The notes under the pieces: generated by a model
What the model saw: the letters and a program-made list of their open reading frames with translations, nothing else
Database searches by the model: none
Told to the model about the DNA's origin: nothing
Shown here: positions 21,671-45,147 of the stretch, one piece after another
Numbering within the stretch: the first letter of the stretch is position 1
Layout of the letters: every line of letters begins with the position of its first letter
NCBI GenBank assembly: GCA_036172245.1
Contig: JAYWIR010000092.1
Location: forward strand, 124,001-188,000
DNA: 64,000 bases
Source of the DNA: Raillietiella orientalis
Lineage: Eukaryota
Direction: 5' to 3'
Position numbers and translations under genes: made by a program

Positions 21671-24600
21671 AGAAGAGAAACAGCGTGAGGGAAAGGTAAA
21701 CCTTGTTGAATTTATCAAATATGCGTTACCCTCCGTACACCCTAAGGATGCTCTCCATGATCCTGAAATTCTTCAATGGAAAACCTCAATTCATTTCCCG
21801 AACTCTCTCCATGAGTAATTTAGGATTCCATTGTTTATTGTGCTTTTAGTTTGGTTTAGTTTTTCCTTCTTCTTTAACATGGAACTGAACCACAGCGGAG
21901 TGCACAACGGTGTTGAGCAAGTGCTCTCTGCATCTTAGCCCTAAAGTCCTGTTCGATCAGAACGCAAAAAGCAATTTAGTTCACATGAAAAAGGTTTTCG
22001 AGTTTACTCTGAAATGTTATCTCTATTATTTGAAGAATACACTATCCAGGAAATCGAAGTGCCTTACTGAGCAGGAACCGGATGATATCGGCCGGCTCCT
22101 CTGGCAAACTGGCTGATCCGAAATGTCATGTCCTCTTTGAAGTCCTAGCTTTTTGTTCTGCTGAGCTACAACCGTCCGGTTGCTTGAGATACGATGCAAG
22201 TGAATTAAGTTGTTATCCTGCGCATCCTTTAAAGGTATTTCAATAGTTTTCTGTTTTATTTTAAGCCTTCCTTTCTTTTTGCCACATATTCTTGATGTCG
22301 TGTTCTGAGAAATATTAAGATTCCCAAACTTTCCAGAATAAGCGCTTCTTGTTAAGTCTCTTGGATATGCATCAGAGAGGTCTTGGTAGAATTCTCTTTG
22401 AACACTTTTGAGCGTCTATTGGGCCAAATATTTGACCGAATTGTCGAAAAAGGTATCTTAGATTAGGCGCGTCTGGAAGATGAACTTGCCTGATGTATAG
22501 GCGAGCTTTATTAGTCCCAGGCAAACTTTCCTTATGTTTGCGAGCAGATATCCACTGCCTGTAAGGAACGATAAAGAGAAAACTTCAATTGTCTATGTGA
22601 TACCTTTACTGCTTTGCCGGCAGTTCTTTTGGTGGTTTCCCGGCGTGTGCTACTTGTTCAGGCTAGTGAACAAGTTCCATATAGCATGTTTTATACGCTA
22701 TTCATTGAGTCCACAATCTATTATAGCAGCTTTTTTCTGACAGACTGCTATACACAACGGACATAAGTTGAACACATTGATTCCCGAGAGTTCTTCCAAG
22801 CGTCTTTACTCTTCTCAAAAGGTGCTTTTTCGCTAATCATCCCTTTGTTTATTTCCTTTGGTCCCACTCTTCTCCTCTGCTGTGGTACCGCCAGACACAC
22901 TTTTGTCGGTTTTTGGTATCGCTTGCTTGATTTCAAGAATAAAATGTTTGCCTGCCATGAATACCATTTTACGAGTGTGAACTGCAACGCCCGTCGATTT
23001 CTTGCAAAGGGAAGCAAAAAATTGCGTCACGTGCTCGCCGCAGCAGAAACCAGCCTGCTCTTGTTTCTCAAACACAAACGTCTGATCACGTGTTTGCTTA
23101 GCAGTCACGTATGCAGATTTTAACCTGAAGAACTCTGGATGAAGCAAAATACGCCTGCTTTCTTTCCATCGTCCGCGACAAATCTTCTGATGATGCTGCT
23201 GCAGATTCGGTGCTCCACTGAGACTTCAATAAAAAAGCCGAGCCCTGACGAATGCGTCTCGAGGATATAGCTGTTCAACCAAGGTGTCTCGGAAGTCCCA
23301 TCTTAATACAGGCAAAACTGAAATTCAAAAGACATGACCTTTGGACTGTTTGCAGCGCTACCATGATTTCTCAACGGAGTAATTTCCGGCTTCTTGAATA
23401 CAACGGAGTTGATCCTTGGCACATTTTTCTCCGTTTTAAACATACACAGGCAAATTCCTCGAATCTGTCAATGTGATTCCTGTTGACTTTTTCTGAAAGA
23501 CAACTGCCATGTGGCAATTGTTTTCCTCAGAGAGCTAGATTTGTAAATGTTTTATAATCCAATTGAAGGATTTAAAAATCTCGGAATAAATCTCTGCTAT
23601 TCGCTCATCATCCAGTTTTAGAGGAGCTTGTTTACATGGAAAACCAAAAATATGATGTGTTTCTTTTCCTCTGCGCCGATGGATTGGCGCCGCGTGAATC
23701 CCTACTTTGCTTCCAGAAAGAGTCGTCGTGGGCTACGAGTTTTTTTCCTCTTTCGTGCGCAACCTGCAAGGTGGTGAGGCAGTCCACCAAATCACGAGCA
23801 CACGGCTTGCTAGAGAGAAAAAAAAAAAAATCTTGCCTGAACGAGAGGCACGCTTGTGAATTTGCTGCAACAACAAACAAGCACTACAGCGAAGATGGAT
23901 CTCATCTGCAGGAGTGACGCAGAGCAGGTACTCTGCATCCAAGTGTCTGGAGCACTATGCAAAACCAGCATCGGTGTCAGGCCTCTTGCGCTGCCATTAG
24001 CAACAGGAAAGCCAAAGATTCCGCCTTCATCTCCAGAAGAGACATCGAAACACCCACAGTTTACTCTGTCGCAGTGGCTTATTTATCACCACGACAACGG
24101 CGCAGAACAAACGGAGCGCTGTGATTCTTATCAAGATGCAAATGGTGAGAACTGTCTTGTACGATAACACTCGTTTACAAGGATGCCAACAGGATTGCGG
24201 TGATCGTTTGGGAACATACGCGCGAGGCTTAAAGCAAACAAATGTGCCTAAACCGGTGCCCTGAAATATCTGGGCATATGGCATTTGAAACCGGAGGCGT
24301 GCCTTGACGCTATGCTTGTTTCTCTTGAAATTCGTCCTCTTCGTTATAATTAAAAGCTCCTGGGCGACTTATTCCGTTGCGGTGATCGGAAATCCATGAC
24401 TCATGGTCTAACTCTAATGTTTGCATTTGAAGCACGCTATAATTCCTGAGCCCTTTCTACACGATGAAGAACAGCTCCTGGTTTCTAACGTGAAACTGCC
24501 CTGATAGCAGAATGGTTGCCCCTTCGGCGCGCGTATGGAGAGGGAATAGGTAGCACAACTAATTCTATTTTCAGCTGATTTTTAACTGTCTGGAATTACA

Positions 24601-27600
24601 TCAAAAAGTGTTCTTCGGCTTCTGTCAATCTTCTTCCTCTCATTTTCATTTTAACAACCAGAATAACAAGATTTAATCGAGGTAATTTTTCTTTCCAGTG
24701 TCTGCACTGGTTATGCTCCGTGAACCAAACTTCAACATGAAACCTGACGTCAGCAATTATCTTAGAACTTATGTAATGTAATTTTTCAAGTGTGCGCCTC
24801 AGCACTCTGAATAATTTAGCTGTGATAGTTCCACCCTCTTGATTAATGAATTAAAGGAATTTGATTGATCCACGTACATGTGGGAGTAAATCATTTCTTA
24901 TGCTGATGTGGTTCTGTAGCAAGAAAATCTGCGATGGCTCTAGACATCTGCTAAAACATCTGCTGCAATATGAACCGGGACTTCTTGAGTCGATTCCAGA
25001 CGCGTGAGCTCTCATCTTCGTGTTGTGACGGTAGAACGCGGGAATAGAGTGTGGCTGTTGGTATGTCTGCAAATGACCTTTACCTTTCTCAAAAAATACT
25101 ACGTGTGTTCGTATGATATGAAGAGTGACTCACCTTGATCTTCCTAACATTCCTTTCATGATGCGCGTGAGTTCAGAAGGCTGGACATGCAAGATATGAA
25201 ACGTTTTGTAGTCTGCTGCTGTTGGTGTCTGCGTTGCTTGAAGCAACGGTGGCTACCCAAATTGGGCTACAAGGTCGACAATCCCCTGCTGATTTTAGAT
25301 TTAGCAATCTGACGGGAGGATGCTAATTGTACTTTCTAACTCCAAGAAGTGACATATCTGGTCAACACTGCATCGAGACGTGGGGTCCTGATTTTGATGA
25401 TCCTCGTACAACGAACTGCACAGTGGATGTGACGGTAGAGTTATATTGTACCTCCTGATTCTTTACATGATTCTCTTTCAGACTGTGGACAGAGTTTCTC
25501 GTGAAACGACGATTGCAATTGTGGGAGATCAAGAAAGCTGTTTGTGCCAAATTCAAGGAGGTCGCGGGTAAGACACTCTCTAATTTCAGAATTCGGGAAG
25601 CCTCGGCGACATATGCATTATGTTCTTGTATGCCTGTTGAGGGAGGCATGGACATGCGTTCGTGTAGTCTGGGAACCGTTATTTTATGAGGAATGCAAAA
25701 AGACTTGTAGCTAGTAAGCTGGGATCTGCTTTTGTCGGCTATGATCAGAACCGCAAAACAGAAATGCTGTTGCCAAAATTCCTTGGTTCTCACGAGGGAA
25801 CGAAAAGCATTGAAAAGGCAAAACCTTTTACTGAAAGATAATTTGCGACACAGTGGCACTTCATGAAAAAAATTTTCGGGACAGTTCATATATATAATTT
25901 GGTAGAAATTACTCCCATGGTAGGCATTCGAATAGCGCAGTCAACAGATTGATTATCGGATCAGGTTTGAGATAGCTTGCGTGATGATTGTTTCTAGAAA
26001 TCAGGGTTACCGACATTTCTAAAGGCTCCGCGGAAAACGAAAGCGATCCATTGATTGAACCTTAGTCTATGTCCGTTTTCTTCATTTTACATGTGTTTGC
26101 AATTGTTCTCATCTTATTCTTTCTTTAGCTTTTATATAATCATGTTTGTACATGTGCTCTATAAAGGAACTTATAGAAGCTCACCGGAGTTCATACATTT
26201 TGGAACCCCTTGAATCCAGTTGAACACCTCTAATCGAAATGTAAACACAGAAATTCAACAAATCCATAAGTAAAACAAAACTCTTGCTTACGTCAGAACC
26301 GATGTACTACAGAGACGTTGAAACGACCTCGAAATACGACTGGGTTCCGTTTCAATTTCTCCATCGTACATCGGTTCTATTTCTAGGTCCGACTGCACAT
26401 TTGGCTAACAGATGCAAAGAAAGAAACCGACGGCAATACTGTGCATGCAATGCAAACGTTGGGTGTGTCAAACACCTTTCATTCCGCTCATGTTCTGTTC
26501 CAGGAGCTTACCGTATGAAACAAAATTGCCCAAAACCACACCTTTTCGTTTGGGCTGCTCTTTTAACGAAGGCGGCTGGTGCGGCGTATTATTAGCGTTT
26601 TCCACTCCATCAGGCGAACAGAAACCTAAATAGAAGTGGAATATACGTTTGCGTCTCCATAACGTGCAATAAAGCATATATTGCCTAGATGTTCGTTTTT
26701 GATTCACACCATAAAGATGAATTCAAATCAGGTCACCTGAGAAGTTTGTTTAGAAAATAAAGCTTATTGTCTGTGTCATGACGTTCGATCCTGCTGCGTT
26801 ACATACATCTGCGAGCAGGAATTCGATAGAAACTAGCAATAGGCATGGAAACATCTCTGCGGCGGCACGGCAGAAACGTAGACGAAGAAAAACATAGATA
26901 GAGGCTTAAAAATGGGGAGTTTGGGCAAGGGACAGCCTTGTGTCGCAGAATATTATCTGCGATCCCTTAAACGTGATGGTGAGTTTCCGTTTCATCAATC
27001 CCAGTTGGAGGTATTTTGACGGTGCCAGATGAAGAGAACAGCGGCAGTGATGCCTTCAGTTTCGTTTTAATGTCCTCTACTCTTGCTGCAAACAGTCGCG
27101 GTCCTGACACGGAGGCAGCAAAGTGCCGCTAAGGATGCGGACAGCGCAAAGACATGGAGATGAACCGCAAAACGTATTCGCAGTTTCCGCAAATATTCGA
27201 AGGGACCTCTCCCGTTAATGCACACCTCAAGAGGCAATTGGGCCGGATAGTGATCTTGATGGTGAGGAAGATGTACCCACTCTCCACAGCTTGCAAGCAC
27301 ACCCGTGTCCAGTGATACCATCGGGGGTTGCACGGATGGCCTTAGTGCAGTAGCATGAGTGCCGACTTCTGTCACGTTAAAGAAAAGATGCTGGAATTCA
27401 TGTGCTCAGAGTTACTGCAGATCTCTCGCCGCAATTCTTTGTTGCACACTTTAACATATAAGTTCACGATTTCCACCATTTTTACTCGCAGAGTTGGTGT
27501 TCTAGAAGGTGCTTCAATTTCTTAAGTGTCTTCTTCTTTTGCGGTTTTCACAGTAACTACCCATCTTGTTGTATGGCGAATGTCCGTGTGCTGCTTAAGG

Positions 27601-29881
27601 GAGATTGGCTTGCTGGCGATTCAGAACTTGCACCCAACGCATCCTTTGCAGGAACTTCGAGGACCTTTCAAAGGATGGAGTTGCGTTACGCACGCAGAGG
27701 ATACATTGCTTCCGTTCACGTTTGGCTATCGGTTTATCGCTCACGTGTAAACGGCTTCCTGGAATCAGATCCTTCCGTTGATAGGGCAGCACGGGTTCTA
27801 TTCCTGCTGCACGTACTCAGTCGTTTGCGATCGCATTTAGCACATTTCTAAACTTCCTCGCCTCTCATTCTATCGCACTGTAGCATGGCCGTTTAAAGCT
27901 TTGTCTGTAGTCAGTGCCGTGAATAAGTCTTCAAGTTCTCCACATGAACCTTGTTTACTTTTCTCCGTCTGTAAACGTTCAGAAGCAGAAAATTTAGATC
28001 AACGGTGCAGAGAAGATTACCACGCCGCCACTGAAAGCGATACTGTATCCACAAGCTAAAAGTACTCTAGCGAAGGACACTTTAGCTATCAAATGCATAA
28101 TTTTACATAAAATTTACAAAAAGAAACAAAAGGTTGAGAAGTAATCCTTGGTCGTGGCCATATCTCAGAGAGAAGCAAAACGTTAAATAGTCGCTCCACG
28201 TTCTTTAAACATGAAGTTCACTCACGTTACTCGAGGGTCGGATAGGTCTGTTCGGATTCCGTTTAAAAGCATGGTGCTCCGTGAAATTCATTTTCAAAGA
28301 CATAAAGACATAAAAATCAACCACTTTCTCAAGTTCCACCGCCATGATCTTTCCTTCTTGCTGGAAAGATGCATTTTGTCTTCCAGGAATGCGCGGCAAT
28401 AGAGGAAACACGGAACGGTAACTGATTTGTTCGTTAGGGGTCGTGAAAAAGTGAAGGCTAAGGACGCGATGATCACACTGTGACCCTCGACGCATCATGC
28501 ATCAGCTTGAGTATGCTAGCAAGTTGATAAATTGAATTTCGCAGATTGAGCATATTTGCCATCTTGCGGATATTTCCAGAGAACATTTCGTTGAGTGGCT
28601 GGCGCCCCTGTCAGGTTATTCTCTTCTTGCCGCTTCCATAACCACTGCTGCCATGTTCCGCATGCAGCAAGTGGTCTGTGCGCACGCGTCTGGCAGAGTG
28701 CGTCACGGGAGAAAATCCGTTCATACAGGTCTGTAGGGCTCGTATAGGCGGATCCTGAGGGCCGTCAAAAAACTTTCCCAGAGAGAGATGTAGGCAATGG
28801 TTGCTAGGAAACCCAGTACATTGTGACGACGAAGAAAAGCGTCCGGCGAATTTTGCCAGAAATACAGTTCCTTTTCCTCGTGCCGACAGTAAAACAATTT
28901 TCGTAAGCATCTCGAGGAGATGTCATCGGAAACTACTATAGAGGTTCATCGGTGGAGCAGCCCTTCTACATGGTGCACACGGTGAACAAAGCTCTCAGCA
29001 ACATAGAAAACGAGAAATACTTTTAGAAATCCATGACCTAAAAAGCCCAAAAGTCTATTCCTGGTGATATATTCCAACTACTGTTTCTTATTGGTAATAT
29101 GTGGTAACACTTCAAAACGTGCTTTTCGTATGTGATCCATTCAGGTGATTGACATTTTAGAAAGCTTGTCCTCTTCTATTTGTTTCAACTATATAGAATT
29201 TTTGTAAAAGCAGAGGTTATTTCGATTACACAAATTGATGTTTCTTTGATTGTACCGTAAACTGCTGTTTCTGGCAAAGCATTTACTGAAGAGACGGCCT
29301 GGTGTCTTCCCTGAGAAGTAAATTGGCAGATGGCACATCGTTCATTGCTATTTTCACTTCTTGCTGGGAGGCCAGCATCCAAAACGGTACTGCACTCAAG
29401 AAAAGCGTGGAGAGACGAAAACTACGTGCATGGGTGCAAACTGTTTACTATGAAATCAGCGACGCCGTTGAACTTCGATTGCAGCTGCCGGCGTCCGAGG
29501 TCGTTGTTGCACGCTAACTCAAGCCCGCATATGAACTAACACGTTCTCCTGTACAGCCCGGTCCGATTATCTGGAATGTGCTTTCCCTCTGGTAGATATC
29601 GAGAAAAGCACCGAGGAACCGTAAAAGACAGGGAAAAGACAGCAGTTGCGTGAGGTTCCCCGAAACATGCCAAGAACAGTATTCTATTAGAAGAACACTG
29701 CGTGCAAAGTGTTCAAACCATCGGTTGAAAGCATCAGAATCAACTGGTTTATTTTAAATAAAGTTTCGTGCAAGACATGTTACAAAATTTATGGATGTTC
29801 TTTTCTAGTGGGACTCTCTCCACGCTGTTTTCAGAAGAATCTGTGCCTCTTGGATAATATTTCATTCATTTGGTATCTTGA
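21671..29881. other. Lower-GC island with no recognisable LINE sequence and no long ORF
   Basis: Visibly more AT-rich than its flanks. Longest ORF is 175 aa, with no domain I can recognise confidently. Confidence 0.75.
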
Positions 29882-30395
29882 TTTTCACTCGGATAATCCG
29901 GATCTTTTATTACTAAAATTGTATTATTAAGATTATTTCTTTATCTTCTTATTTATTTTATTATTATTCGAATTTCTCAATAAACTGTATTATGAAGTCT
30001 AATTCTATTGTGTTTTTTTTGAGTCAGAACCCACAATTCTCATTTGATTTGTTACACCTGTCCTTACCGAATTGCAGGCCACTGACATGCTCTAAATGAA
30101 AGAACTATTCAGCAAAACCAGAAACAAAAACACACGTTTATCTAAGTTTTAGAGGGTAAGGGAATGAAAGGAGGGATCAAGGTATGCCACGAGAAGGCCT
30201 GTGCATCCAGTTTTGGATGTGGATAGCTGCTGGCAAAAGTTTTCTCAACCGGTGCCATCGGGTAACCGCCTCCCTTGAGATGACTGCCCAATGAATTGCA
30301 ACTCGTCTTTGGTGTCCTATCCTCTGCGGAGTCCACTTCTCCAGGATTCTGCGTATTCAGCAAGGAACTGCCGCACACTCGGCTGCTGGCAGGAC
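29882..30395 (-). mobile_element. Very old G-like LINE 3' end; left edge of the right nest
   Basis: Reverse strand reads AVPC*IRRILEKW...IHWAVISREAVTRW (compare G: AVLCCVRGIVQRW...FHWTTISLETATRW). Terminus is AATAAAAGATCCGGATTATCCGAGTGAAAA at 29882-29911. Confidence 0.75.
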
Positions 30396-30734
30396 GTTGA
30401 GAATGAGAACACGACAGAAAATGTATTTTGGGTCTCACAGCGTATTGTTCAAAATCGACGAAATTCGTTCCGACATGAGGCGCAGAACGACACCTCTATT
30501 TGGAGGTCAGGGTTGGTTTTTCTTTCACAGCATCATGCACAATTGGCATTTACAATCCCAACTGTTCCTTTTGCAATCGGATGTGTTCTGTCATGTCTTC
30601 GCGAACTGGTGGTTGAGAAGGTTTTTTTTTGGAGTGCGTGTGGTGTATGGAACTGATGGTGCACCATTCCAGCGATGCATGAATACAGTGCAATTTAGAT
30701 CAGCAAGGAAGAAACGATTTGCCCTCCTCCAGAA

Positions 30735-32160
30735 TTGGAAGTGGGGTCATCCACCCCCATGGAATGCAAAGCACCCATCCCATCGGTATCTAGGGTAACT
30801 TCCACTGCGCAACATACTCCGCCACCGGCGATGTGCTGGAGCTCATTGGTTGCAGTTCCATCGCGGCAGAAATCGTCAAACACACAACCTAGAATGCCAG
30901 AGGCTACAAGCCGTCTCTGGTCCACGAGATAGGTAATTTCATTGATGATAACACTGCACGTTCGTATAAATGGGAACTTTTGAGGTTGAAATTGTGAGAG
31001 AAAACCCTTGAGAGTTTCTAGTCCATAGTAGAGGTTAGCGAGTCGAACTGATTTGCAAAGATGGAAGTCTGGCGCAGCGCTTACTAAAAACTCCCAATAC
31101 GATGCACGTTCGCAAGGTCTTCAATGTGTCGGAGGATCTTTCAGTTGTCGTCCATTTCACAGGAGTGGCAGCGCTCATGCGCCAAATTGAGGACCATGCG
31201 GATTTATCGTAACACGTTACCGTAATTGCGCTATCAAACAACGTCTACGTCTTATAGGCATAGACAGGGCTGTTTTGTGGATGACTGCAGCGCATGTCAC
31301 ACTGCCTCAGAATGGTAGATTGCCTCACAAGCTAAACATCCGCAACGAAAACGTCGATCTGTGGTACGTTTTCATATCTAATGATTGTGGGCAATGTAAC
31401 GCCACAGGTCATCTGCCAATACGGTGCACTAATATCCAATGCAACTTGTACAGCGAGAACAGAAACCATCGCACGATGTACCCTGAACTCGAAACTCCGC
31501 ATCGGCCCGCTGCCAAAAAGGCAATAATGAAAGGCATATGAAACAAAAAAATGCCGACAGTATAAAATGAGAAGGCTGGAACAAACCAGACGCCAGTTTC
31601 TAAAGCCTCACAAAAACATCAGAACGAAAATCCCCAAAGCAAGCTAGGTACCTCAGAACCGCTCGCTCCCGGCACCAGCCACATACACGGTAAACGCACT
31701 GCGTTCTTTGAAGGCCCGCGGCGAGACTGGTTGGCCAAAGCAGGTTGGTGGCGGACGCATCAGATAGTGGGAGACTTGAACGTCCGCCTTCTTTCTGGAG
31801 CGACCGACTTAAGAGCACAATTAGTCAATGTGTGCTGCGATGCACGCGCGCAACTTGTTGGCCGATGAAGGCGATGTGACAAACACAATCAACCACGTGT
31901 TCTTCGAAAACCACCTGTGCACGCGGGTGGTGACTCGAGGAGCACTCTCGTCGGAGCTGTCCGATCACCCTCGGCAAGTGCTCACCATCCATCAGCGCGA
32001 CAGAGGTCCACCCTCCGAAGCGTGGCGCCTGCCGGGAGACTGGTTGCCACTAGCAGGAGCGCGCGAACTTCTGCATGCATTCCTGCGCGGTTGCGACCTG
32101 CAAACTCTTGCTGACTGAGATAAAATAAAACGCTCCGTCCGAGATTTCTGAGACCAGTTT
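30735..32160 (+). mobile_element. Old degenerate LINE (ORF1 and EN remnants)
   Basis: GYKPSLV, VELICKD..LAQRLLKTP, LPHKLN...VDLWYV, CGQCNATGH; then SELSDH...AWRLPGDW. The 5' boundary is uncertain. Confidence 0.82.
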
Positions 32161-34595
32161 CTGGACAAAAGCTCGGCAGGTTGGCCAGCGTCAGCCTGTA
32201 CGCCCTCTCCACCAACTCAAAGAAGATGCTGAAGAGCAACGGAATTGAACTGTTGCCCTGCCTGATGTTCCGCCGCACCGGCACGCCGTACACGTGGCAG
32301 CCGCTGAAAGAGATGTAAATGAGCGCGTGGCGCCAGCAAGCGCGCAAATACGCCACGAGGTGCACCGGGAATACACGTTCTTGTTGCCCGGAGCGTACAC
32401 GTTTGTGACGATTAAGTCGATTGAGTCGGACCAGCTGAGAGTCAGCTGACCGACCCGACCCGTCATCATCGAAGCGTACGCCCTTCACGGCAGCGTCGAT
32501 GACCGGCTTCACGAAGAACGCGACCCCACAAGTGTTGCGGGCGCCGCATCGCCAATACAGTCGACCCCCCGCGATCGTCTCGATCTCCTAGACGTGCGCC
32601 GCAAAGATCACGTGGATCTCCTGTAGCAGGGCCAGGTCGAACTCACGCAGGGTGTCGGCTGTGTCTCGCCTGTTGCCGTCGTCGCTCAGCCCGTTGACAT
32701 TCCAACAGGCCACGCGAATCCGGCGGCGACTTGCGAGCCCAGGTGCTTATCCTGGGAATTTGGCACTGCTGCGCCGCCACCTGTTGGGGCGGGACGCTAG
32801 GAGGAGAAGGGGCAGGTGCATCGTGCACCAAGTCCCCTTCCTCAGGGGGTGCCAGTGTTTCGGGCGGCTCCACCGAGGGAGGTGTCGCGCTTACCTGGTC
32901 GTCCTCCTCCATAGGGGCGGGATTCTCGGGTTCGCCGCATGCAGAGGTAACTTCGACCCCCTGCTCACTTTCCATTATAGGTGTCGCCTGCACGCCGGCT
33001 TCCGGGTGCGGGAGACAGTGCTCTGGGATTTCCACGCACCGTCGGCTTCCAGTGTTTTCACTTTCTCCTCCTCGCTTGTGGACCGAAGGCGCCTCCTGGG
33101 CTTTTGGGACTTGCGTCCCTCTTTCCGAGCTGGGGCCTCCGCGGAGGAGGATAAACTTCCAGCCCCCGGGTCTGACTCAGCTTCGGGGGCCTTCTTCACT
33201 GGAGCCGGCCTTTGCACGCCCTTTCGAGAGGGGTTCTCTCGCTCGGCGAGCGTCGCCGCGAGCTCCTCCGCGGCCTTCACGGAGGCCGCGTCCTCGCTGT
33301 CGGAGCGCGCGTCTGGCGGCTTGCCCTCGGAACCGACAATAGGCTCGTCCTGGCGAGTATCGATCACGGTCTCAACAGGTTTTTCTGCTCCGTCGCCGCA
33401 GGTGACCTCGGCAGGAACGACGTCCCGCTCCAGGGTCACCGAGCACTCACGGAGTGCGTTATCGCGCGGCGCGGCTTTTTTCTTTTTCCCGGCCTGCTTT
33501 CTCTCCGTCTTTTTTTCCGACGTGATGACCATCTCTTTTTTCTCCTTCCTGGCCTTAACCAGCTGCCAACCCTCCTCCACTTCCGCGTCTACGGGAGTTC
33601 TTTCCTCCGACTCCTGTACGGGAGGAAGGGGAGCTGGCAGTTGGGAGCGGCCATTTTCGCGCGCTGGTCTTTCGACCAGCTTTCCGCGTTTACCCTAAGC
33701 CTTTTTGGATGCAGGGGGCACCGGGGTGGGGCGCTTGGGGCACTCGCGCCGAACGTGACCCTTTTCCCCGCATAAGTGGCACACAATGTTCGGGCACCTC
33801 CTACGTAAGTGCCCTACTGCATTGCAGTAGCGACAAAAGCGGGGTTTCCCAACGTACCAGAGGTCTACCGCTTCTTTGCAGACCTCCAGTTTGTGGGGCA
33901 GAGCACCACTGTCATTCACTGTGACACGCGCTGCGGCCTGGCTCCCGAAAAGGCTATTATAGCCTTGGATAATCGTTGGCTTGGGCCACAACGCGTGCAC
34001 TTGACCGTGTTTTCGCAATTCCTCACTAACCGCAGAGCAAGTCTTGCGGCTAGTGATGCAGGTGAGATGGACTCCTACGGAGCGGTCCATCGTAACCGGC
34101 AGGATCTTGTGACCCTCCACGACCAGCGGGGAACTGATCAAGCGCTGGGCCAAGGTGATGTTTTTACACACCACCTCGACGCGCTGATTTCCGCTCAGAA
34201 TGCAGAGGCCGTCAAGGTCTTCCTCGCGAATATTCGCGTCTTGAAGTGCCTTCGAAAAGGCGCGCGCACTGCAGCCATCAAACAGGTTACCTACCTGGTA
34301 AACCAGTGATGGTTTATAAACAGAGGTCCCGTATGCCGCCTGTTCAGACTGTCAACGCACTAAGCGCGGCCACAATGGCGCTCCACGTTCTCGCCTTTGC
34401 CGGCGGGGATGATTCCGGGGCAAATGCTTCTGATTCTGTAGGCTGTGGGTGTGGACAAGCCTCCCCCACACCTTTCTCCATCGTGGTGTCCTCAGACATC
34501 GCTGCCATCGTACACCAACGACGTGATGCAGACACAAAACTCAGGTAAACCGCCCTTTCAACTCACTATCGTAGCGCTGAAAAGACACGTCCGCC
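32161..34595 (-). mobile_element. Family B LINE 5' half with internal deletion (ORF1 34508-~32747, EN start, RT scrap)
   Basis: GGCGGACGTGTC 5' motif; CRYCNAVGHLRRRC and CHLCGEKGHVRREC; NVYAP joined directly to an RT piece at ~32376. Confidence 0.92.
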
Positions 34596-34605
34596 TTCGG
34601 AGTGA

Positions 34606-36310
34606 TTTCCACCAGGGAAATCCCGGAGCGTTTATCGAAAAAACATTCCACAAACGTGATACCAGAACCCACTAACGGCCACACAACACCGGACCTGCCG
34701 GGACGCCAAGACGCAGCCCGACGTGGCTCTCTTCGGCAGTGGAAGGGATGGGGGAGAAAACAAAAAGAAAAATAAAAAGTAAGGACAACAAAAAGAAGTC
34801 GGAGGGCTGGGAAGGGATCACTGTGCACTGGGAGGAGAGCTCATCCTTCGAAGGAAGCCCTTTAAGTCCATTCGAATTGTACCAAGCTGGAGATATCCAG
34901 AAGCTTTCTTCAGGAAGCGAACAGCATACGAGATGACGTCCCTATCGTTCTGGTCCACATCTTCGTAGCGTGTATCACTTTACGCCGCCACGATGCCACG
35001 GATGCAGCATAATGCTGCCACGGCTGCGACTGGCTGCAGGGAGTCCCGCACGAAGAGGAGGCGGAAAACGTCTCTGGGCGCGCTGCCCTTAGGGAGCCCT
35101 AGGGTAGTTTCAAACCGTTCCTACAGGGGTAGCAGGGCAGCACAGTCAACAAGAAGGTCGGATAGCGATTCCCTCTCCCCACACCGGGCACACTCAGGAT
35201 TTACTCTCCACCGGGTCCAGTGGAAGCTGCGCGCGTTACAGGGCACGCCCCAATGCAACGTCAGCAGCGCCGACTCTTGCCACTTGAGGGGGAGAATCCT
35301 AGCTCAATTCAAACCGGGGGCCACTTCAAGTCATCCGTCGGGATGCCGAGCAGCTCGACCCATCTTGCAAGTCATCGCGGGAGGGCACTCGGGGTCGTGG
35401 CATCCGCCAGTTCTCCCTTGGTCCAACCGTTTAAAATCTTCTGTCGTCCTGAGATGCGGCAGAAGACTTGCCACTTCGGCTTCCGACCGCTGGTAAGAGC
35501 TCTATACAGAAAGGGCAGCGCCGCAGCTAAAGGGGTGGTCTCCGCTTACGTGCTTATGGCGGGACACAGCAAAGTGGACCGTAGAGTGCAGCAACCGTTA
35601 CTCCTGAATCGCAGGCGGTTCCAGATTTCCTCTCTGGTGTTGTTCAACTTTGCCCATGTTCCAACGGTTTCCTCCAACCAGGCCGAGGAGTCGGCGGGGC
35701 TGCATACTATCCAACCGTTCTATCTTACCAGGGCTTCCATGCGCTTGAGGAGGAGACCGCAACTTCTAACCTTCCGGCCGCGGCACCGAAGATAGGACGC
35801 GAGCCCATGCGTCCAGGAAACACGGCTGGCAAGGAGGCGGGCCAAAACGCTCCAAGGGTTGTTCCACAACTTCGCTACGATGGCCAAAGTGAGCCATCGG
35901 AGCTGGATTTCCAAGCGCTCTAGCGTCAGGAGACCAAGACCGCCGTCCTGACGTGGAATGCACAAGTCCCTCAGAGGTACTCGGGGACTTCCCTTGCCCC
36001 AAAGAACGATGCGAATAAGGTCCTTGATTCTCTCCTTCAACAGGGTAGGGACGGGGCAAACAAAAAGCAGGGGGCGAAAGATGGGAGCCACGAACGCTTA
36101 CCATACCCCGGCTTGCTCCAGCAAGAGAAACTTGCCCTACAGGAACGGGCCGATCGCCGACACCACTTCTTGGAGACGACCTGACCAGGCTTCTGACGGG
36201 CAGAAGTCCGACAAAGGACGCCAAGTTACTCCAGGTACCTGGCCTCGGGGATCCCCCAGGGGATCCAGTCTGGCCATCCAGCCCACGTCGCACCAACCGC
36301 CAACACCGAC
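34606..36310 (-). mobile_element. Family B LINE, 5'-truncated, complete 3' end
   Basis: RPLLFVCP, PRQDGGLGLL; B-type 3'UTR; terminal hairpin at 34606-34636. Confidence 0.9.
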
Positions 36311-37032
36311 CGCATTTTGCGGGATTTCTACTCCTTCCTATACGCCAGGAGAACACCAGAGCACTCTAGTGCGCAGCGGCTCCTGACGGAGGGTGCTCCC
36401 GCGTTAAGGGAGGGGGAGGTTCACACCATCCACCAGAAATTCACGATGGCGGAGATTGTTTCCGCCATTACAAAATTAAAAAAAAGAAGGCGCCAGGGAA
36501 AGACGGGCTGCTAGCTCAATTCTACCAACTGCTTGAGGCAGAGTTGGGCCACCTGGTGCTCAAATTATGCATGCTGATCCGTGGACGTGGGGAAGTCCCC
36601 AACTCGTTCCGGTCAGCAAAAGTACGCCTCCTCCATAAAAGAGGAGACTTGCGCAAAGTTGGCAACTGGCGTCCCATCACTGTAGTGAATGCGGACACAA
36701 ATTTGCTCGTCAAACTCTGGGTTGAGCGGTTGGGACGGGTAGCGGAACCCGTGGTCTGTCCGGAATGGACATACGCTGTTCCCGGACGAATCATGGAAGC
36801 CAATCTGTTTCTCGCCAGCACCTTTTGGCAGTTGCAACAACGCGGTGCTTAACTACGTCGAGAGGGTCCTGGACTCTCCAGTGACCGGGAGGTAGGAAGC
36901 CGAGAAGAAGATGCGGCGCCCGGAGCCCTTGCGGTCACAGTCGATTTGCGTAAACTTTCGACTGCGTCGACCAGCATCTTTTCGTTGAACTCCTAATACG
37001 CCTGAGACTTCCGGCCGTCTTCCTGGCCTATC
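36311..37032 (+). mobile_element. ORF2 RT fragment of a related LINE
   Basis: FRSAKVRLL, NWRPITVVNAD, YAVPGR. Confidence 0.88.
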
Positions 37033-37225
37033 GCAAGCGTTCCAGGAGCTCCAGGAATAGCTCCTGGTCGACGCAATCAAAAGCTTAACAGTTGAAAATG
37101 TCAACAGCGTGGGAGCGAACCGGCGGAAGCGTTCGTCATTGAGACCGTGATCGATGACACCGCCTTCGAGCGTGCGGCGGAGAAGCTGGCTGCATCGTTA
37201 AAGCCAGACCCCTACAAAGCCAGTT
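37033..37225. mobile_element. Minus-strand RT scrap (KAFDCVDQELFLELLERL, 37033-37086) joined to a plus-strand family D ORF1 scrap (37087-37225)
   Basis: The second part aligns with 48520-48655 (IDD.AF.RAAE.LAASL.P). Confidence 0.8.
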
Positions 37226-40200
37226 GGAGGACGTGTTTTTCCTCCACTCGCCAAAGAGTAGTAGGAAAGCGCTTTTTCTTGTGTGTGGTGTTTTGTGTAC
37301 ATCGTCGCTGTCCAATGGCCAGGATGCCAGAGGACACCGCGATGGAGGTAGGCGTGGGGAAGGCTAGTTCGCCCCCACAGCCTACTGGAGCAGGTATAGC
37401 CGTCCCGGAATCATCCCCGGCCACTCCGAGGACATGCAGCGCCATGTTGGCCGCGCCCAGCGCGGAAGCCATGGCGGAGATGGCCGCATACAAGGCCTCC
37501 GGGTACAAGCCAACGCTTGTCTACCAGGTAGGCAACTTGTTTGAAGGCAGGACTGCACGCGCAGTTAGCAGGGTGCTGCAGGAAGCGAATATACTAGAGA
37601 AGGAATTTGACGGCCTCTCCGTCCTCAGCGGAGGGCAGCGGGTCGAGGTGGTGTGTAAGGACGTCACCTTGGCTCACCGCCTGATTCATGCGCCGCTGAA
37701 CGTTGACGGCCGCAAGATCTTGCCAGTGTCAATAAAGCGCTCCGTAGTGGTCCACATGACCGGCATTAGCAGCCGCATGACTCCCTCTGCGTTAGGAGAA
37801 GAACTACGAAAGTTTGGGGAGGTGCACGCACTGTGACCCCAACCCACCATTTTTGACGGCTACGGAAGTCTTTTTGGTGGTGAGGCTGCAGCGCGGGTCA
37901 CCGTAAAAGAAAATTCTGGACTTCCACACAAACTGAACGTCCCGCAAGAAAGCGTGGACCCTTTGTACGTGGGGAAACCACGATACTGCGGATACTGTTC
38001 TACCGTGGGACACCTCCGTAAGAGGTGTCCTAACATCCAGTGCCACCTGTGGGGGGAGAAGGGCCACGTTCGGCGCCTGTGCCCCAAGCGCCCCACTCGG
38101 GTTCCACCTGCCGCCAAAAGAGCGCAAAGGAAACGTGCCTTGAAGGTCGCAAGACCTAAGGCGGAAAGTATCCGTCAGAAGCTGCCAACACCTCAACTTC
38201 CGGCGCAAAGGCCGGAGGATAAACCTTCCAAAGTAATGGAAGGGAAAGAGGGCTGGCAACTTGTTGCTGCCAGAAAAGCCAAGAAAGCCCCATCCACGGA
38301 GAAGAAAGAACGTAAGCCGGCGGGTAAGCGAAAAAACCTGGTCCGCGCTCGAAAACTCGCGAGTGCACGGTGGCACTGGAACGAATCGTGGTTCCCGAGG
38401 ATGCCACCCGGAGCGACGATTCTACCCTTGCCGCTTCCTCTACGCCCAATGCTCGCGACGGCGAACCCTCTGTTTACACATAGGGTGAGCCGCGCGACAT
38501 AGCGGCGGTCGAAGCCGCGGACGCCGCGTTCGCGTATGCGGCGGAGGAGCTCGCGGTCACGCTAGCCGAGCGTGAGAACCCCTCGCGCAAGGCCGTGCGA
38601 AGGCCGGCTCCAACGAAGAAGGCCCCACAGGAGAGTTAGACCTGGGGGCCGGAAGTACATCCTCCTCCTCGGACGCACCCCCCAGGAAGTCGGGACGCAA
38701 GTCCCAGAAGCCCAGGAGGCGCCTCCCCTCCACCAGCGAGGAGAAGACGGAAGCCGTCGCCAGCGTGGGAAATTCGGAGGAGGAATTCCCACGCTCGGAA
38801 GCTGTCGATCCGGCCACCCCCATGAAGGAAGGTGAACAGGGGGGTGAAGTCCCCCCTGTAGGCGCCGACCCTGAACAGCCCGCCCCCATGGAGGAGGGCG
38901 AACAGGTAGGCGCGACCCCACCTGTGGGTGACCCGCTCGATGTGCCGTTACCTATGGAGGAGGGGGACCAGGTGCCTTCAGCACCAGACCCTCCTTCTCC
39001 ACCTAGCGTCCCGCCCCAACAGGTGGCGGACGCCGCAGGTCCGATTTCCCAGAAGTAACACCTGGGGTCGCCAGTCGCCGTCGGATTCGCGCGGCCTGTT
39101 GGAACGTCAACGGGATGCGCGACGACGGTAACAGGCGAGATACACCCGACACCTTGCGGGAGTTCGACCTGGCCCTGTTGCAGGAGATCCATGTGATCAT
39201 TGCGGCGGACGTCCTGGAGATCGAGACGATCGCGGAGGGTCGACTGTATTGGCGATGCGGCGCCCGCAACACTTGTGGGGTCGCGTTCTTCGTGAAGCCG
39301 GTCATCGACGCTGCCGTGAAGGGCGTACGCTTCGATGACGACGGTCGGGTCGGTCAGCTGACTCTCAGCTGGTCCGACTCGATCGAATTGATCGTCACGA
39401 ACGTGTACGCCCCAAGCGTAAAAGGGGGATACAGGGACCGTACCAGGTTGCTGGAAACCCTGAAGCGCGACTGGCTGGCCGATACGAACGTGCGGAAGGC
39501 ACACCTGATAGCTGGGAACTTTAATCTCCGTCTGCTGTCAGGTGAGCCCGAAGCACAAGAACGCACGCCCAACGAGTTGTGCGCTGCCATGCGCACGCGC
39601 AACTTGTTGGCAAACGCGGAGGGAATGGACCGCAGCATCGACCACTTCTTCCTGGATGTCGACCTGTGCTCGCGGGTCGGCAAACGGGGAAAAGTTGCGT
39701 CGACTCTGTCAGACCATTCCAGGTTAATCGCCGAGGTTTGCCCGCACGATAAAGGACGCCCGTCGAGGGCGTGGCGGCTGACTGGGGACTCGACGCGGTT
39801 CTCAGGTGCGAAGGAACACCTTCGCGAATTCTTGAGAGCGTCACCCTCCGCAGTCTCAAAGATTGGGACCTGTTCAAGGCCTCGGTCCGCGAGTTCTGCG
39901 AGGAGTTCCCCCTGCACCGCCAGCCCCTTGGACTTGGGGAGGAGGCTCGGAAACATAGGGCCTATTTACAGGCCCGCCGGTACGAGAGGACCCCTAATGT
40001 CCGTCGCCTGGGCGAATATCGAGCCGGGGCCGAGCGCCAAGCTTGACAATCCGGGTCGGCCAGCTTGCTGGACTGTGAGCTTCTCGTCTAGGACAGGTGG
40101 AAGACTCCATAATTAGAACGGAGCAGACATCCACTGTTCCCGGGCGAAGTATGGATGCCAACCTGTTCTTCGCGAGCATATGGTTCCATGTGCAGCGCTG

Positions 40201-42421
40201 CCAAAATGAAACTGGCGGAAAGATTGGCAACCCCACTTTGGGGCCGCCAGCTGGGCTGGGAATGGACACCCGGGCTGGGAAGGGGGCCCTAGCGATCGCG
40301 GTCGATCTCCATAAGGCGTTCGACTGCGTTGACCAGGAGCTACTGTTGGAGCTCCTGGGTCGCATGGGCTTCCCATCCTCCCTTCTCTCCTTCCTGCGCT
40401 CCTGCTGGCGCAACGCCATCGTTAACATCTGCTTTTCCAGCCAACAGGTGTACGGCGTGCCGGTGCGGCGGTGCATACGGCAGGGCGATAGCCTCAGTCC
40501 CCTGGTCTTTAGCACCTACTTTGAGTTGGTGCTGAGAGCGTACAGGGTGACTTTGGCCCCATTGCCGAGCTCGTGCCCCGGCACGCCCGCCGTTGCAGCG
40601 TACGCCGTCGATCTTCTGCTCTTGTTGCCCATGTCCGCCCCGGCAGCCGCAGTCGAGGATTTCTTCGACCTGCTAAGTCGTGGGACTGGACTTCGGGTAA
40701 ACAAGGCGGAGTCGTCGGTCGTAGCGGTGGGTGCGACGTGGGTCGGACGGCCTGACTGGATCCGCTTAAAGATCCCCGCGGCCAGGTACCTGAAGTACCT
40801 GGGTGTCCCGTTGGGGGACTTCTGCCTCGCAGAAGCCTGGTCAGGTCGTCTCCAAAAGGTAGAGTTGGCAATCGGCTCGTTTCTGGAAGGCAAGTTCCTT
40901 CTGCCGGTACGGGCCGCGGTGTGGAACGCGTTGGCGGCTTGCATCCTCCGCCCCCTGCTTTTTGTTTGCCCCGTCCCCCGTGACATTAAAACGTGGACCA
41001 AGGACCTACTCCGCATCGCCCTCTGGGGTAGCGGGAGGCCACGTGTGCCTCTAGATGACTTATGCGCTCCTCGTCGGGACGGCGGTCTCGGCCTCCTGAC
41101 GCTGGAGCGCCTGGACATACAGCTGCGATGGCGCACCCTCGCCATCGCAGCAAAGTCATGGAGCACCCCTTGGTGCGTTCCGGCCCGCATCCTCGCCCGC
41201 CGTGTGTCCAGGACGCAAGGACTCGCGTCGTACCTTCTGTGCTCTGGCAGGAAGGTCAGAAGATGCGGCCTTCTCCTTGGGCGCATGGAAGCCCTGGTGA
41301 GAGACAACGGCTGGATGGTATGCAGCCCCGCCAACTCCTCCGCCTGGCTGGAGGAATCCGTTGCGACGTGGGCCAAGCTGAACCTCCAGACTTCCCCGGA
41401 CTGGAACCGCCTGCAATTCGGCCCCAACGCCTGCTGCACACTGCGGACTACTCTGGAGTGTCCCGAAAGGAGCACGTGGGTGGAGACTACCCCTCTAGCC
41501 TCGACCCTGCTCTTCCTACGAAGAACTTTAACCAGTGGCCGCAAGCCAAAGTGGCAAGTCTCCTGTCGAATCGCAGGCAAGGAAAAGAAGATGAGCGGTT
41601 GGACCATGCAAGAACTGGCAGATGCCACGACCCCGAGTGCCCTCCCGCGTGGACTTCGTCGCTGGGGTGAGCTGCTCGGCATCCCGACGGATGACCTGAA
41701 GTGGCCTACAATATTAATCGGATCCAGGCTTCTCCCCCTGAAGTGTCAGGAGTCGGCGCTGCTGCTGTTGCACTGGAGTCTACCCTGCAACGCGCGCCGC
41801 TTCCACTGGACGCGAGGAAGTGTAAGGCCTGAGTGTGCCAGGTGCGGGGAGCGGGAATTGCTCCCCCACTTACTTGTTGACTGTGCTGCCCTCCGACCCC
41901 TGTGGGAACGGTTCGGGACGACCCTCGGGCTCCCAATGGGCAGCGCGCCCAGAGTCGTTCTTCGGCCCCTCTTCGTGCGGGACTCCCTGCAGCCCACCGC
42001 AGCCCTCGCATCTTTCTCCTGCATCCGAAGCATCGTGGCGGCCTGGAGCGACATTCGTGACGAAGGAGTGGATGCCAACGCGAGGTATGTCATCCCGTAT
42101 GCGGTCTGCTTCATGCAGAGAGCTGCGAGATGGCCCCATCTGGGAAGCATGAAGATGGACCTGGAGGGCATCCTGCGAAGGATGGGCCCTCCTCCCAGTG
42201 GATTGTGATTTCTTCCTCTCCCTCCAAACTCATTTTTTGTTTTCCTTATCTTTATCTTTCTTTTTGTTTTGATCCTTATCCCCCTCCACTGCCGAGAAGC
42301 GTCACGCCGGGCTGCGTCCCGGCGTCCCGGCAGGTCCGGTGCTGTGTGGCCGTTGGGGGGGCTCGTACCACGTTTATACAGAGTTTTTTTGATAAACGCC
42401 TCGGGCGTACCCGGGTGACAA
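37226..42421 (+). mobile_element. Family B LINE with both termini and an internal ORF2 deletion at ~40075-40097
   Basis: 5' motif at 37226-37240; ORF1 37315-39058 (broken); EN 39060-40075; RT to C-terminus 40097-42208; terminal hairpin 42391-42421. No matching TSD seen, so it may be a recombinant. Confidence 0.92.
40097..42208 (+). pseudogene. Family B ORF2 C-terminal 703 codons (RT with YAVD; CARC...HLLVDC)
   Basis: Open frame, but the N-terminal RT is deleted and the catalytic YADD is altered. Confidence 0.9.
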
Positions 42422-45048
42422 CCCCAAATCCCGCAGGTAGGCGATGCTAAAGGAACCGGTCGCAGAACTGCTGGACCGACTGCTTGAAGCGGTCCCAGTC
42501 CTGAATCGTCCGCATCCTGAAGTTCCGTATGAACGCGCGGAGATGTTCCGCCGCGTCCGGGAACTTCAGTCAGTCCCCTGGCAGACGCCACGCTGACGAC
42601 GGGGGGCCCTTGTCGCGCGGATGCACTTCGAACACGAATCGGCCATGGTCCGACAGCAAGGACGGTAACTTGCCGCGCCTGCCCACGCGAGAGCATAGGT
42701 GCTAGTCAAGGTACACGTGATCGATGCTCCGTTCCATGTCCGTATCTCCGGCCAGCAAGTTGCACGTGTGCATTTGCGCGCACAACTCGTTGACGCGGTG
42801 GTTCAGTGTATCCGGCGCACCTGAAAGCAGGCGCAGGTTGAAGTCACCTGCGATCAGGTGCGCTTTGCGTACACCTGCTTCGATCAGCCAATCGCGTCCG
42901 AGGGCAAGGTAGAATTCTCTTCTTGCCTTCGCCCTCAAAGCGTTATTTCCGCTAGGAGCGTATAGGTTGGTGACGACCAGGTCGATAGAGTCGGACCAGC
43001 TGAGAGTCAGCTGACCGACGCGACCTGCGTCATCGAACCGAACGTCCTTTATTGCGGTCTCGATGGCTGGCCGAAGCAGGAAGGCGACACCGCTTGATAT
43101 CGCGGTGCCGCAACGCCACAACAGCCGCCCACCCGAGATCCGTTCGATCTCCCGGGCTTGATCTGCGGAGATCACGTGGATCTCCTGCAGCAGCACCAGG
43201 TCGAAGGATGCCAGGGTGGCGGTCACGTCACGCCACTTGCCGTCGTCGCTTAGCCCGTTCACGTTCCAACAGGCGATCAGAAGATGACGGCGAGAGGCGA
43301 TTCCCGGCATTATGGCTGGGAAAGTGGCGTCGCGGCACCTGCCGCGGGGCAGGTGTAGGAAAGGTCCATCGGTGCGAGGACCATCGTAACGAGGACGGAG
43401 GCCTCTTCAGGCGCCTGGGGTACCTGTTCGGCCTCCATCCTCACCATCCCCTCCGTGTCCGAGCGTGGAATTCTCTCGGGCGACGGGTCCCGGGAGTTTC
43501 CCACGCTCATGGCACCCTCGCTACCGGAAGCCATCTCTTCCCCTTCGTCGGGGGAGACGATCTTCCGGGGCATTGTGGAATTTCGTCCTGCCTTTTTGCG
43601 GGGTGCTGAGGACATGGATGCTGTGTTTCCGTCCTTCACCTCGGGGTCGGAAGTGGCCGACCCCTGAGGGGAAGCAGGACGCCTGACGGCCTTCTTGCCA
43701 GCCTTGGGAACGGCCGGCTGCAACGAGGCAACCAGTTCCTCCGCGGCGCGCTCCAAGGCGACGTCATCGAGCGTTGGCTCGATGACGGATGCCGCCGCCT
43801 CGTTTCCTTCCTTGTTGACTTTGCCAACGGAGGGTTGAGCAGGGGCAGCAGCAAGTTATTTAGCGCCGCATTCGTCGATGGCGGGAATACCCTCTACGAC
43901 GACGCACCAGCTTTTGGTTTTTTCGCGGCGCGGAGTGGTTTCGCTCCGTTTCGCCACGTTCTTTCCCTTCTTATGGGAGTTTTTCTTGGGTTCGACCTTC
44001 TGCCACCCTGGCTCTTGACCCTCGCTTTCGAACTTTTCGGCGTTTTTCGCCGGAGTCTCGGGGCTGGCCTTCGCCTTTGTGGCGCAGGTGACCTTCTAAG
44101 CAGCAGCACGAGTTGGCATCTTTTTTCTTTTTTTAGCCGCGCTCTTCCTTGCGTTTTTTGCGGACACGACGCGGTCTGTGTTTTGGGGGCACACCAGACG
44201 GGTGTGCCCCGCTTGTTTGCATTGCTGGCACTGCACGCTCGGACACGTCATTTTATGGTGACCAAAGCTGCTGCAGCAGCCGCAGAACTTGGGTGTCCCC
44301 ACGTACCCGACGTCAGTGGACTCACCGTTGACGGTGAGTTTGTGGCGAAACTCACACGCTTCGCGGACCGTTACTCGCGCTGCACCCAGGTTGCCAAGCA
44401 CCCCGTCGTAATCAACAAAAAACGTAGGCTCACCCCACAGCGCGCGGACAGTTGCGAATTTTTCTAATTCGTTCCGCACAGCCTCCTTCGTCATCCGGAA
44501 CGTGATACCGGTCAGGTGAATTATCACCGACCGGTCTTCAGTAATTGGGAGAAGCCTCCGGCTCCCCATAATTACAAGGGTCCGCAGAAGTCTTTGCACA
44601 AGAGTTGCCTCCTTGCAGATAACTTCCACAAATTGTCCCCCGCTTCTGACGGACATAGCCAGAAGCTCCTCTTTTTGTACGCCGAGAACGCGCATCGCCT
44701 GAAAGAAGGCGCGCGCGTTTTCGGGAGAATATAGACCGTCTACCTTATATAGAAGGGGTGGGTTATACCTCTCCTCCAGGTAAGCGCGCATCTTTGCCAT
44801 AGCCGCTGGCGTAGGTGCCGCAGCCACGGGGTTCCAAGCCCTGGGTAAGGCCGAGGGCGCATCCGTGTTGGCGGGAGCCTCCACTGATGCGGAAGCCCCC
44901 ACCTCCATCTCCTCCGGGGGCAATGAGGTCATCGCCCCTGGATCCTCACCGATTGTGGTATCAGGCATTGCTGCCTAATCCACCACCCACACCACGCACA
45001 AGCACCAACGGAAATAAAACTCAGGAGCAGCAAAAAGACACGTCCGCT
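42422..45048 (-). mobile_element. Family D-related LINE 5' half (ORF1 44968-43310, ORF2 EN from 43310)
   Basis: GGACGTGTCTTTTT 5' motif; CGCCSSFGHHKMTC and CQQCKQAGHTRLVC; ACWNVNG, LLQEIH, AGDFN, IDH. Cut at GFG-V. Confidence 0.92.
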
Positions 45049-45147
45049 CGACGCTCCCGAGTCTCTCGGATTGAAGCCTTTTTAAGGCCTTGGTCCGGGA
45101 GTTCTGCAAGCAGTTCCCCTTGAACCGCCTGCCTTCCGGATTCGGCG
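45049..45147 (+). mobile_element. Host ORF2 remnant ending at 'SGFG-V'
   Basis: VREFCKQFPLNRLPSGFG. Confidence 0.85.

Follow-up and report, generated by a model that had tools for sequence, protein, structure and literature searches.

Two head-to-tail B-type LINEs separated by a short target-like spacer in a nest of LINEs from Raillietiella orientalis

Transposable elements can lie head-to-tail with a short piece of their target between them. In R1 tandems of Drosophila melanogaster the spacers are duplications of the ribosomal DNA (rDNA) target, 33 nt long and of other lengths, and R1 dimers with spacers of several lengths as well as 5'-truncated dimers are described (PMC5932611). P-element dimers are separated by their 8-bp duplication, and the work on tandem dimers by McGurk and Barbash (2018) describes how a double landing at one site leaves the duplication in the junction (PMC5932611). 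Here we analyse two copies of a long interspersed nuclear element (LINE), B2 and B1, which lie head-to-tail with 11 nt between them in 64,000 nt of Raillietiella orientalis (assembly GCA_036172245.1, contig JAYWIR010000092.1, positions 124,001 to 188,000), hereafter the window. All evidence comes from this one 64-kb window, which is heavily rearranged, and our counts and junction surveys cover it only. Its copies were compared by self-BLAST and by tblastn of the window's own frames, and termini were placed with nhmmer profiles of aligned ends.

The first-pass annotation of the window had likened the pair to R1, and the analogy is apt: as described for R1, whose tandems are separated by rDNA target duplications, a site-specific LINE of the endonuclease type would have left head-to-tail copies split by a short target piece (PMC5932611). 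The R1 target is 28S rDNA, whereas here it is coding sequence of a sibling LINE, entered antisense, and the spacer is 8 (or 11) nt. Also unlike R1, array expansion is not seen in this window, and among solved structures human L1 ORF2p, rather than any R-element, is the best match. The locus resembles the dimers of McGurk and Barbash in that, as described there, junction motifs match the preferred target of the element (PMC5932611); their data are population data with many junctions, whereas we have one junction and a related one with a 98-nt spacer.

LINEs that nest in mobile elements form a second point of comparison. Tx1L of Xenopus, one of the site-specific LINEs of the Tx1 group, is an L1-clade LINE with a specific target inside another transposable element, Tx1D. 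That target is a DNA transposon, whereas ours is open reading frame 2 (ORF2) of a sibling LINE. Zepp and ZeppL of green algae direct their insertions at copies already present, and the GC-rich nested clusters that they build, one on each chromosome, have been proposed as centromeres (PMC8226300, PMC3446292). Judged by these descriptions only, our window is likewise a LINE-in-LINE nest, with 53-62% GC; it differs in that the elements here have no poly(A) tail and in that the Zepp accounts describe tandem arrays mostly of 3' ends and report no fixed antisense ORF2 site. Cnl1 of Cryptococcus inserts within itself in tandem orientation (PMC9942834), and its arrays are described as subtelomeric with a single orientation, whereas 7/8 host junctions here are antisense and no telomeric repeats were seen in the window. 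Self-nesting LINEs are thus already known. What may set this locus apart, at low certainty because it is a single, heavily rearranged window, is a fixed nick in a conserved codon triplet, antisense entry, and hints of lineage-specific sites. We did not find such a fixed ORF2 site described in the passages on self-nesting LINEs that we consulted, and no dedicated search for such a site was made.

The joint between B2 and B1

By tblastn the LINEs of the window fall into two groups. The A family (1-3900 and 53759-59100) has ~27% ORF2 identity to the other LINEs and is an unrelated group, and the second group holds related lineages with 55-80% ORF2 identity, namely B-type, B'/60553-type and C-type. 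The features at the joint and the B-type reference copy are as follows.

34606-36310, minus strand: B2, a 5'-truncated B-type LINE (C-terminal part of ORF2 and 3' untranslated region, UTR), 77% identical to B-ref 40714-42417
34595-34605, no strand: the spacer, 11 nt, compared with intact and occupied sites
32390-34594, minus strand: B1, a B-type LINE whose 5' terminus is complete; identity 73% with B-ref 37226-39413, 72% with 10374-12409
37226-42422, plus strand: B-ref, the B-type reference copy, from the tblastn grouping

We found that two reverse-strand self-BLAST blocks abut at the joint, 34610-36310 with the 3' end of B-ref and 32390-34595 with the 5' ends of B-ref and of 10374-12409, and that no alignment in the window self-BLAST crosses the B2/B1 junction. 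B2 comprises the 3'-terminal 1.7 kb of a B-type copy; it has a tblastn match to ORF2 residues 719-939 and a 5' break at 36310. Its 3' terminus (...CCCTGGTGGAAA) is at 34606, and the profile places the terminus at 34605/34606 (E 5e-17, nhmmer). B1 is the first 2.2 kb of a copy, comprising 5' UTR, ORF1 and N-terminal endonuclease; its 5' terminus reads GCGGACGTGT at 34594->34585 (profile match placed at 34595, E 3e-20, nhmmer) and it breaks off at B-ref position 39413. The minus strand at the joint reads ...CCCTGGTGGAAA, then TCA and CTCCGAAG, then GCGGACGTGT... This confirms, from both the self-BLAST blocks and the nhmmer termini, the earlier description of two minus-strand B elements head-to-tail with an 11-nt gap, although the gap had been placed at 34596-34606, one base off. 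The precise termini head-to-tail, with target sequence between them, are what marks a tandem dimer made by double insertion.

Within B1, ~220 nt of the endonuclease N-terminus (32390-32610) are 95% identical to B-ref, with the remainder of B1 at 59-83%. This patch may reflect gene conversion or strong constraint.

The bounds of the spacer were set by the terminal consensus, 3' ...GTGNNAA and 5' GNRGACGTGT. Nine 3' termini were accepted at E < 1e-3 (nhmmer) and one match at E 0.44 was discarded; seven of them had built the profile (42422+, 18612+, 45147-, 34605/6-, 7466-, 49188-, 12410-) and two were newly found by it (17203+ and 6216+). All six 5' termini were in their model (37226+, 10374+, 34595-, 47263+, 45048-, 60768-), and four further matches at E >=1.5 were discarded. 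We found that all nine 3' ends carry the module TAAACGCC..CCGGGTGNNAA followed by 0-3 variable bases, that the poly(A) or A-rich tail typical of the L1 clade is absent from all nine, and that all 5' ends begin GNRGACGTGT. Copies other than B2 end in AA, AAA or AAAT, so tail length varies. A small hairpin predicted in the 3' module showed 0 compensatory changes over its 4 predicted pairs, and the idea of a conserved 3'-terminal hairpin was dropped since covariation gave it no support.

On the plus strand the spacer reads CTTCGGAG (34595-34602) and then TGA (34603-34605). Its bases are absent from the 8 other 3' ends and the 5 other 5' ends in the window, so the spacer is part of neither terminal consensus, as the first-pass annotation had supposed. 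That annotation had also called it target-derived, and we found that CTTCGGAG agrees at 8/8 positions with the intact site 52239->52232 and at 7/8 with the site 7052->7045. Read in host sense, it has the strand that would be expected, adjoins a B-type 3' end directly, and matches the primer-side half of the nick site described below. The TCA between CTCCGAAG and the ...GGAAA of B2 would be either variable tail or untemplated bases of the B2 3' joint; the joint of B1 with the spacer has no extra bases, which occur only at the B2 3' joint, a place where other copies likewise carry 0-2 variable bases. Alternatively the nick may lie two bases further on, and CACTCCGAAG then matches CTCTCCGAAG at 9/10.

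Among random 18-mers of the window, 583/100000 had an exact match of at least 8 nt to the start of any half-site variant (n=7), a conservative figure because real sites inside the window inflate it. The likeness of spacer to target is better than chance but not overwhelming. This bears on a further possibility, chance filler in the spacer or, in so repetitive a region, a joint made by rearrangement of the DNA or by faulty assembly; the likeness to the target would then carry no meaning. In favour of this, the match covers just 8 nt, deletions, foldbacks and segmental duplications abound in the window, and the joint is known from the assembly alone. Yet the 8 nt stand in the right place, strand and register beside a B-type 3' end at an empirical chance of ~0.006, and a misjoin of repeats would be expected inside the sequence that they share, whereas this joint links an exact 3' terminus to an exact 5' terminus. 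We therefore regard filler, rearrangement and misassembly together as improbable.

The host element and its GFG nick site

B2 and B1 sit antisense in an old plus-strand LINE, X'.

30707-32166, plus strand: X' left, a degraded host LINE (ORF1 remnant and endonuclease), by tblastn, 61-63% nucleotide identity to other copies
36311-37032, plus strand: X' right, 65% identical to 61670-62401
32160-32381, minus strand: a C-type LINE reverse transcriptase (RT) fragment of 210 nt between the broken end of B1 and the host flank, 88% identical to 14227-14436

X' left stops 22 nt short of the nick site (its end aligned to 61450-61490) and X' right resumes ~170 nt past it, at ORF2 residue ~377 of the 60553 frame. 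From their strand, order and similar divergence the two are probably parts of one element. The 3' two-thirds of B1 are gone and the C-type RT fragment stands in their place; it is also 79% identical to 51149-51348, and just 74% to B-ref. Since this fragment ended near the start of B2, we considered B2 and B1 as one circularly permuted element, and this was ruled out because the fragment belongs to another lineage (88% to 14227-14436). We also ruled out B2 as the 3' half of another host, H2, as B2 has 71% amino-acid identity to B-ref ORF2 vs 53% to the 60553 lineage.

The nick site consists of the codons Gly-Phe-Gly (GFG) in the linker between endonuclease and RT domains, GG-N-TTY-GG-N-G^. Three further B-type 3' ends (42422, 18612, 45147) each abut at least 95 nt of antisense sibling-LINE ORF2 starting from the same nucleotide.

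42413-42432, plus strand: J1, where the B-ref 3' end (42422) meets antisense ORF2 of the host H2 at the GFG nick, by end alignment and profile
18603-18712, plus strand: J2, a B-type 3' end (18612) and 100 nt of antisense host ORF2, same nick, by alignment and profile
45049-45146, plus strand: J3 spacer, a 98-nt piece of host ORF2 that reads in sense on the plus strand, by alignment and profile
39930-39939, plus strand: unoccupied GFG site GGACTTGGGG inside B-ref, by site alignment
61504-61513 (plus strand), 7054->7045 (minus strand) and 52241->52232 (minus strand): further unoccupied GFG sites, by site alignment

Read in the sense direction of the host, these junctions are GGATTTGGGG^ at 42423, GGAATTTGGTG^ at 18613 and GGATTCGGCG^ at 45146. 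The J2 element has its 5' junction at 10364/10374, and its host is 7466-10364 / 18613-18712. Eight host copies span the site: four are intact, three are occupied at the exact nick, and one, X', holds the tandem with the site deleted. The four unoccupied sites continue GAG.. or ATC.. (Glu or Ile). The spacer had been read as 'F G V I' and the target as GFG-V; GFG stands, whereas V and I do not, as intact hosts read GFG-E or GFG-I. The GT(T/G) that follows the nick is the antisense of the element tail (AAC; TCA at this locus), and the 'V' is thus not target.

The first-pass annotation had pointed to other tandem junctions as a check. The only other one in the window with a full 5' end is J3, where a B-type 3' end (45147, minus strand), 98 nt of spacer and a complete 5' terminus (45048, minus strand) of H2, of a B'-like lineage, follow one another. 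Its spacer is collinear with host ORF2 and begins exactly at the GFG nick, in agreement with what that annotation predicted.

The host remnants 18613-18712 and 45049-45146, which lie behind two B-type 3' ends, stop within ~5 nt of the same host position, with different sequence after: A-family ORF2 from residue ~232 in the first case and the H2 5' terminus in the second.

We next consider whether these junctions are independent. The J1 and J2 elements are identical at 167/193 positions in their last 200 nt and their coding flanks at 67/94 (Fisher p 0.003). Over ~610 nt the elements are 86% identical between J1 and J2 and each is 74-75% identical to J3, and the flanks group differently, with J2-J3 at 77% vs 71% and 65% for the other pairs. 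Segmental duplication of a single insertion would give congruent similarities; the incongruence therefore indicates at least two events at the same nucleotide. Independent copies at one target nucleotide, the mark of a site-specific LINE, are thus found for 3/5 B-type 3' ends in this window sample. A constant duplication or deletion at every insertion is not found: the B-type insertion 10374/18612 has a 9-10 nt deletion, the tandem implies a duplication of 8 nt, and other lineages have +16 to +57 nt. The tandem had been put forward as the best internal evidence for specificity, but a stronger case comes from the three 3' junctions that share one nucleotide although element and flank similarity are incongruent. 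The best explanation of these alignments is that the B-type lineage prefers a single sense-strand nick in sibling ORF2, its copies probably entering antisense to the host. The preference for GFG, 3/5 B-type 3' ends or 4/5 counting the tandem locus, is not absolute.

Among the other 3' junctions of the window, 7/8 are antisense to host ORF2. Such dense nesting would suit a reading in which B2 and B1 are two independent insertions at neighbouring host positions, so that the 8 nt are single-copy host sequence and no target was regenerated. The 98-nt spacer 45049-45146 also admits such a reading, with 95 nt between two antisense insertions in one host, and the nick of B1 itself is out of sight. 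Against it, the three readable B-type junctions share the exact nucleotide, and a nick 8 nt away would be an exception. We give this reading little credence.

How the tandem may have formed

Repeated insertion, as the first-pass annotation proposed, is the likeliest reading of the pair, though unproven, and we put it at a probability of about 0.55. The tandem would have arisen, as in R1, from two events of target-primed reverse transcription (TPRT) at the same nick in X'. Both B-type copies would have been reverse-transcribed from the GFG nick of this old host, and in one event the second-strand break would have fallen 8 nt into the primer-side flank, leaving CTTCGGAG between the 5' end of full-length B1 and the 3' end of truncated B2. 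The three extra bases would be the variable tail of B2 or untemplated bases added at priming, and either order of the two events would yield the observed structure. The termini, the half-site match of the spacer and the reuse of the nick elsewhere are directly observed. The two events, a duplication of 8 nt and recognition of the site by the element protein would be what lies behind them.

Long and variable target duplications are likewise observed in this group of LINEs. A duplication of 57 nt (15142-15198 / 17204-17260, 84% identical) surrounds the 5'-truncated copy 15202-17203. A C-type element splits a plus-strand copy (47263-49186 / 60769-64000) at endonuclease residue ~78 with a duplication of ~16-21 nt (49166-49186 / 60769-60786).

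60768->49187, minus strand: C-type element, from the tblastn grouping

Just before the 5' end at 47263 stand 22 nt (47241-47262) of the half-site found after the 3' end at 6216, which suggests a duplication of ~22 nt. Half-site bases before a 5' end are ordinary in this LINE group, and their length is not fixed. The 57-nt duplication is unusually long for a LINE.

Repeated insertion is not the only reading that fits the tandem, since a single TPRT event with end-to-end template jumping gives the same structure. A full-length B RNA would be copied to give B1, the enzyme would then jump to another B RNA at its 3' end, which carries read-through flank bases (for a site-specific element always the GFG half-site), and 1.7 kb of it would be copied before joining to the host. 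The RT of R2 is known for end-to-end template jumping. Such an event predicts the order that we observe, a possibly truncated upstream copy, flank bases, and a downstream copy with a complete 5' end. Extra LINE fragments at other 5' ends suggest a jump-prone enzyme, among them a 130-nt sense ORF1 fragment of another lineage (37091-37220), 5 nt before the B-ref 5' terminus, and there is a chimeric A-family/B-like joint at ~18700. However, the donor RNA would have to stop only 8 nt (and 3 odd bases) beyond the element, a jump should leave untemplated bases between the B1 5' end and the spacer, where there are none, and ordinary target duplications of 16-57 nt already account for half-site bases before a 5' end. 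We therefore consider a template jump unlikely.

Several observations weigh against two TPRT events. The 3' part of B1 and 22 nt of host flank are missing, with a fragment of another lineage in their place, so the second copy that defines a duplication is unseen. With the B1 3' junction and this flank deleted, the regenerated target of the first-pass annotation is not borne out; the sole B-type insertion with both junctions (10374...18612) shows no duplication and lost 9-10 nt of host. The reading does not account for 3 of the 11 spacer bases, and the chance figure for the 8-nt match is just ~0.006. The host flank on the B2 side resumes 170 nt from the nick, and J3 may stem from separate insertions into one host, with 95 nt between them. 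At 7466 a B-type 3' end meets a C-type ORF2 on its sense strand and at an unrelated position, a tail-to-internal joint without spacer and without GFG sequence. Finally, the joint is known from the assembly of a single rearranged region.

The LINE nest and what the tandem may mean

The window is almost wholly made up of non-long-terminal-repeat retrotransposon copies nested in one another on both strands. Its GC content falls to 42-45% in a block at ~22-30.6 kb, and no Pfam-recognisable frames or genes were found in this AT-richer block (22000-30600), which is embedded in the nest; no tandem repeats were found in 21000-37500. In the long frames Pfam finds Exo_endo_phos (E 8e-9 to 8e-17) followed by RVT_1 (E 1e-17 to 2e-30), so that ORF2 has the LINE order of apurinic-type endonuclease and then RT. 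The best solved-structure match is human LINE-1 ORF2p (E 4e-36), with R2 proteins far behind (E 3e-10), and zf-RVT gives a weak Pfam match of 25.9 bits, below the 27.5 cut-off. The structure ranking and the weak zf-RVT match point to L1-like LINEs. B-ref itself is not intact: it has no ORF2 residues ~365-511 (60553 frame), and there is a frame break between its endonuclease and RT frames. Truncation at the 5' end is seen in B2 and in 15202-17203.

In a protein search the closest relative (P0001) has 71% identity and lies on a 2.9-kb contig, and the other 17 matches have at most 28%. A metagenome scan gave 80 loci, all 20-35% identical and therefore of another family, and these were not used as evidence. 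A search of sequencing runs found one DNA run with 5% of the sampled words, and no RNA run matched. At 80% likeness 480 pieces of that run's contigs were placed, 9 of them at >=99% and 313 at <90%, which shows that the sample contains related LINE copies. Among the pieces listed (8/514) and the loose ends listed (6/353) none touches the B2/B1 joint.

Other rearrangements were seen in the window. A segmental duplication of ~6 kb (99-6120 and 55302-61939, 83-95% identical) holds an A-family LINE, a minus-strand C-type ORF1 and the start of a plus-strand ORF2, and its first copy (99-6120) has an internal deletion of ORF2 residues ~33-362. The A-family LINE 53759-59100 (plus strand) lies between ORF1 (60665->59154) and ORF2 (53153->50682) of the C-type element, which itself lies in the plus-strand copy 47263-49186 / 60769-64000, giving three nesting levels. 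A direct duplicate (8097-8802 / 17297-18002) is a 700-nt piece of a minus-strand copy, 92% identical and far younger than the surrounding copies. Near the tandem, an imperfect inverted repeat (36951-37087) forms a foldback, followed by the 130-nt ORF1 sense fragment before B-ref; the arrangement at 36951-37220 has the look of a 5' junction that underwent template switching or rearrangement. The 5' flank of B-ref was ruled out as a host half-site, being an ORF1 fragment of another lineage.

Other lineages may have nick sites of their own. The 60553/47263 lineage has junctions at the RT motif HKAF^D in antisense hosts, with its 3' junction at 6216/6217 and a 5' junction at 47263 with the 22-nt half-site 47241-47262, and HKAF^D may be a second lineage-specific nick site. 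The corresponding sites would be the GFG codons for the B-type and endonuclease residues 78-88 for the C-type. We tentatively raise the possibility, which we think doubtful on present data, that sibling L1-like LINE lineages form a guild in which each prefers a nick of its own in the ORF2 of the others and entry is always antisense. If so, the coding sequence of one element would serve another as a safe harbour, a nest made of LINEs only would be built up, and reuse of the nick would make tandem dimers able to seed larger arrays, for example at a centromere.

By itself, the B2/B1 junction is a textbook-type consequence of site-specific insertion and calls for no new mechanism. If the pattern holds genome-wide, this LINE lineage would have as its specific target a conserved codon triplet in the ORF2 of its relatives, such that each new copy is a new target and each insertion disables a competitor. 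This would help to explain both the growth and the confinement of LINE-only clusters such as Zepp, and the tandem dimer would be an early step from a dispersed element to a tandem array.

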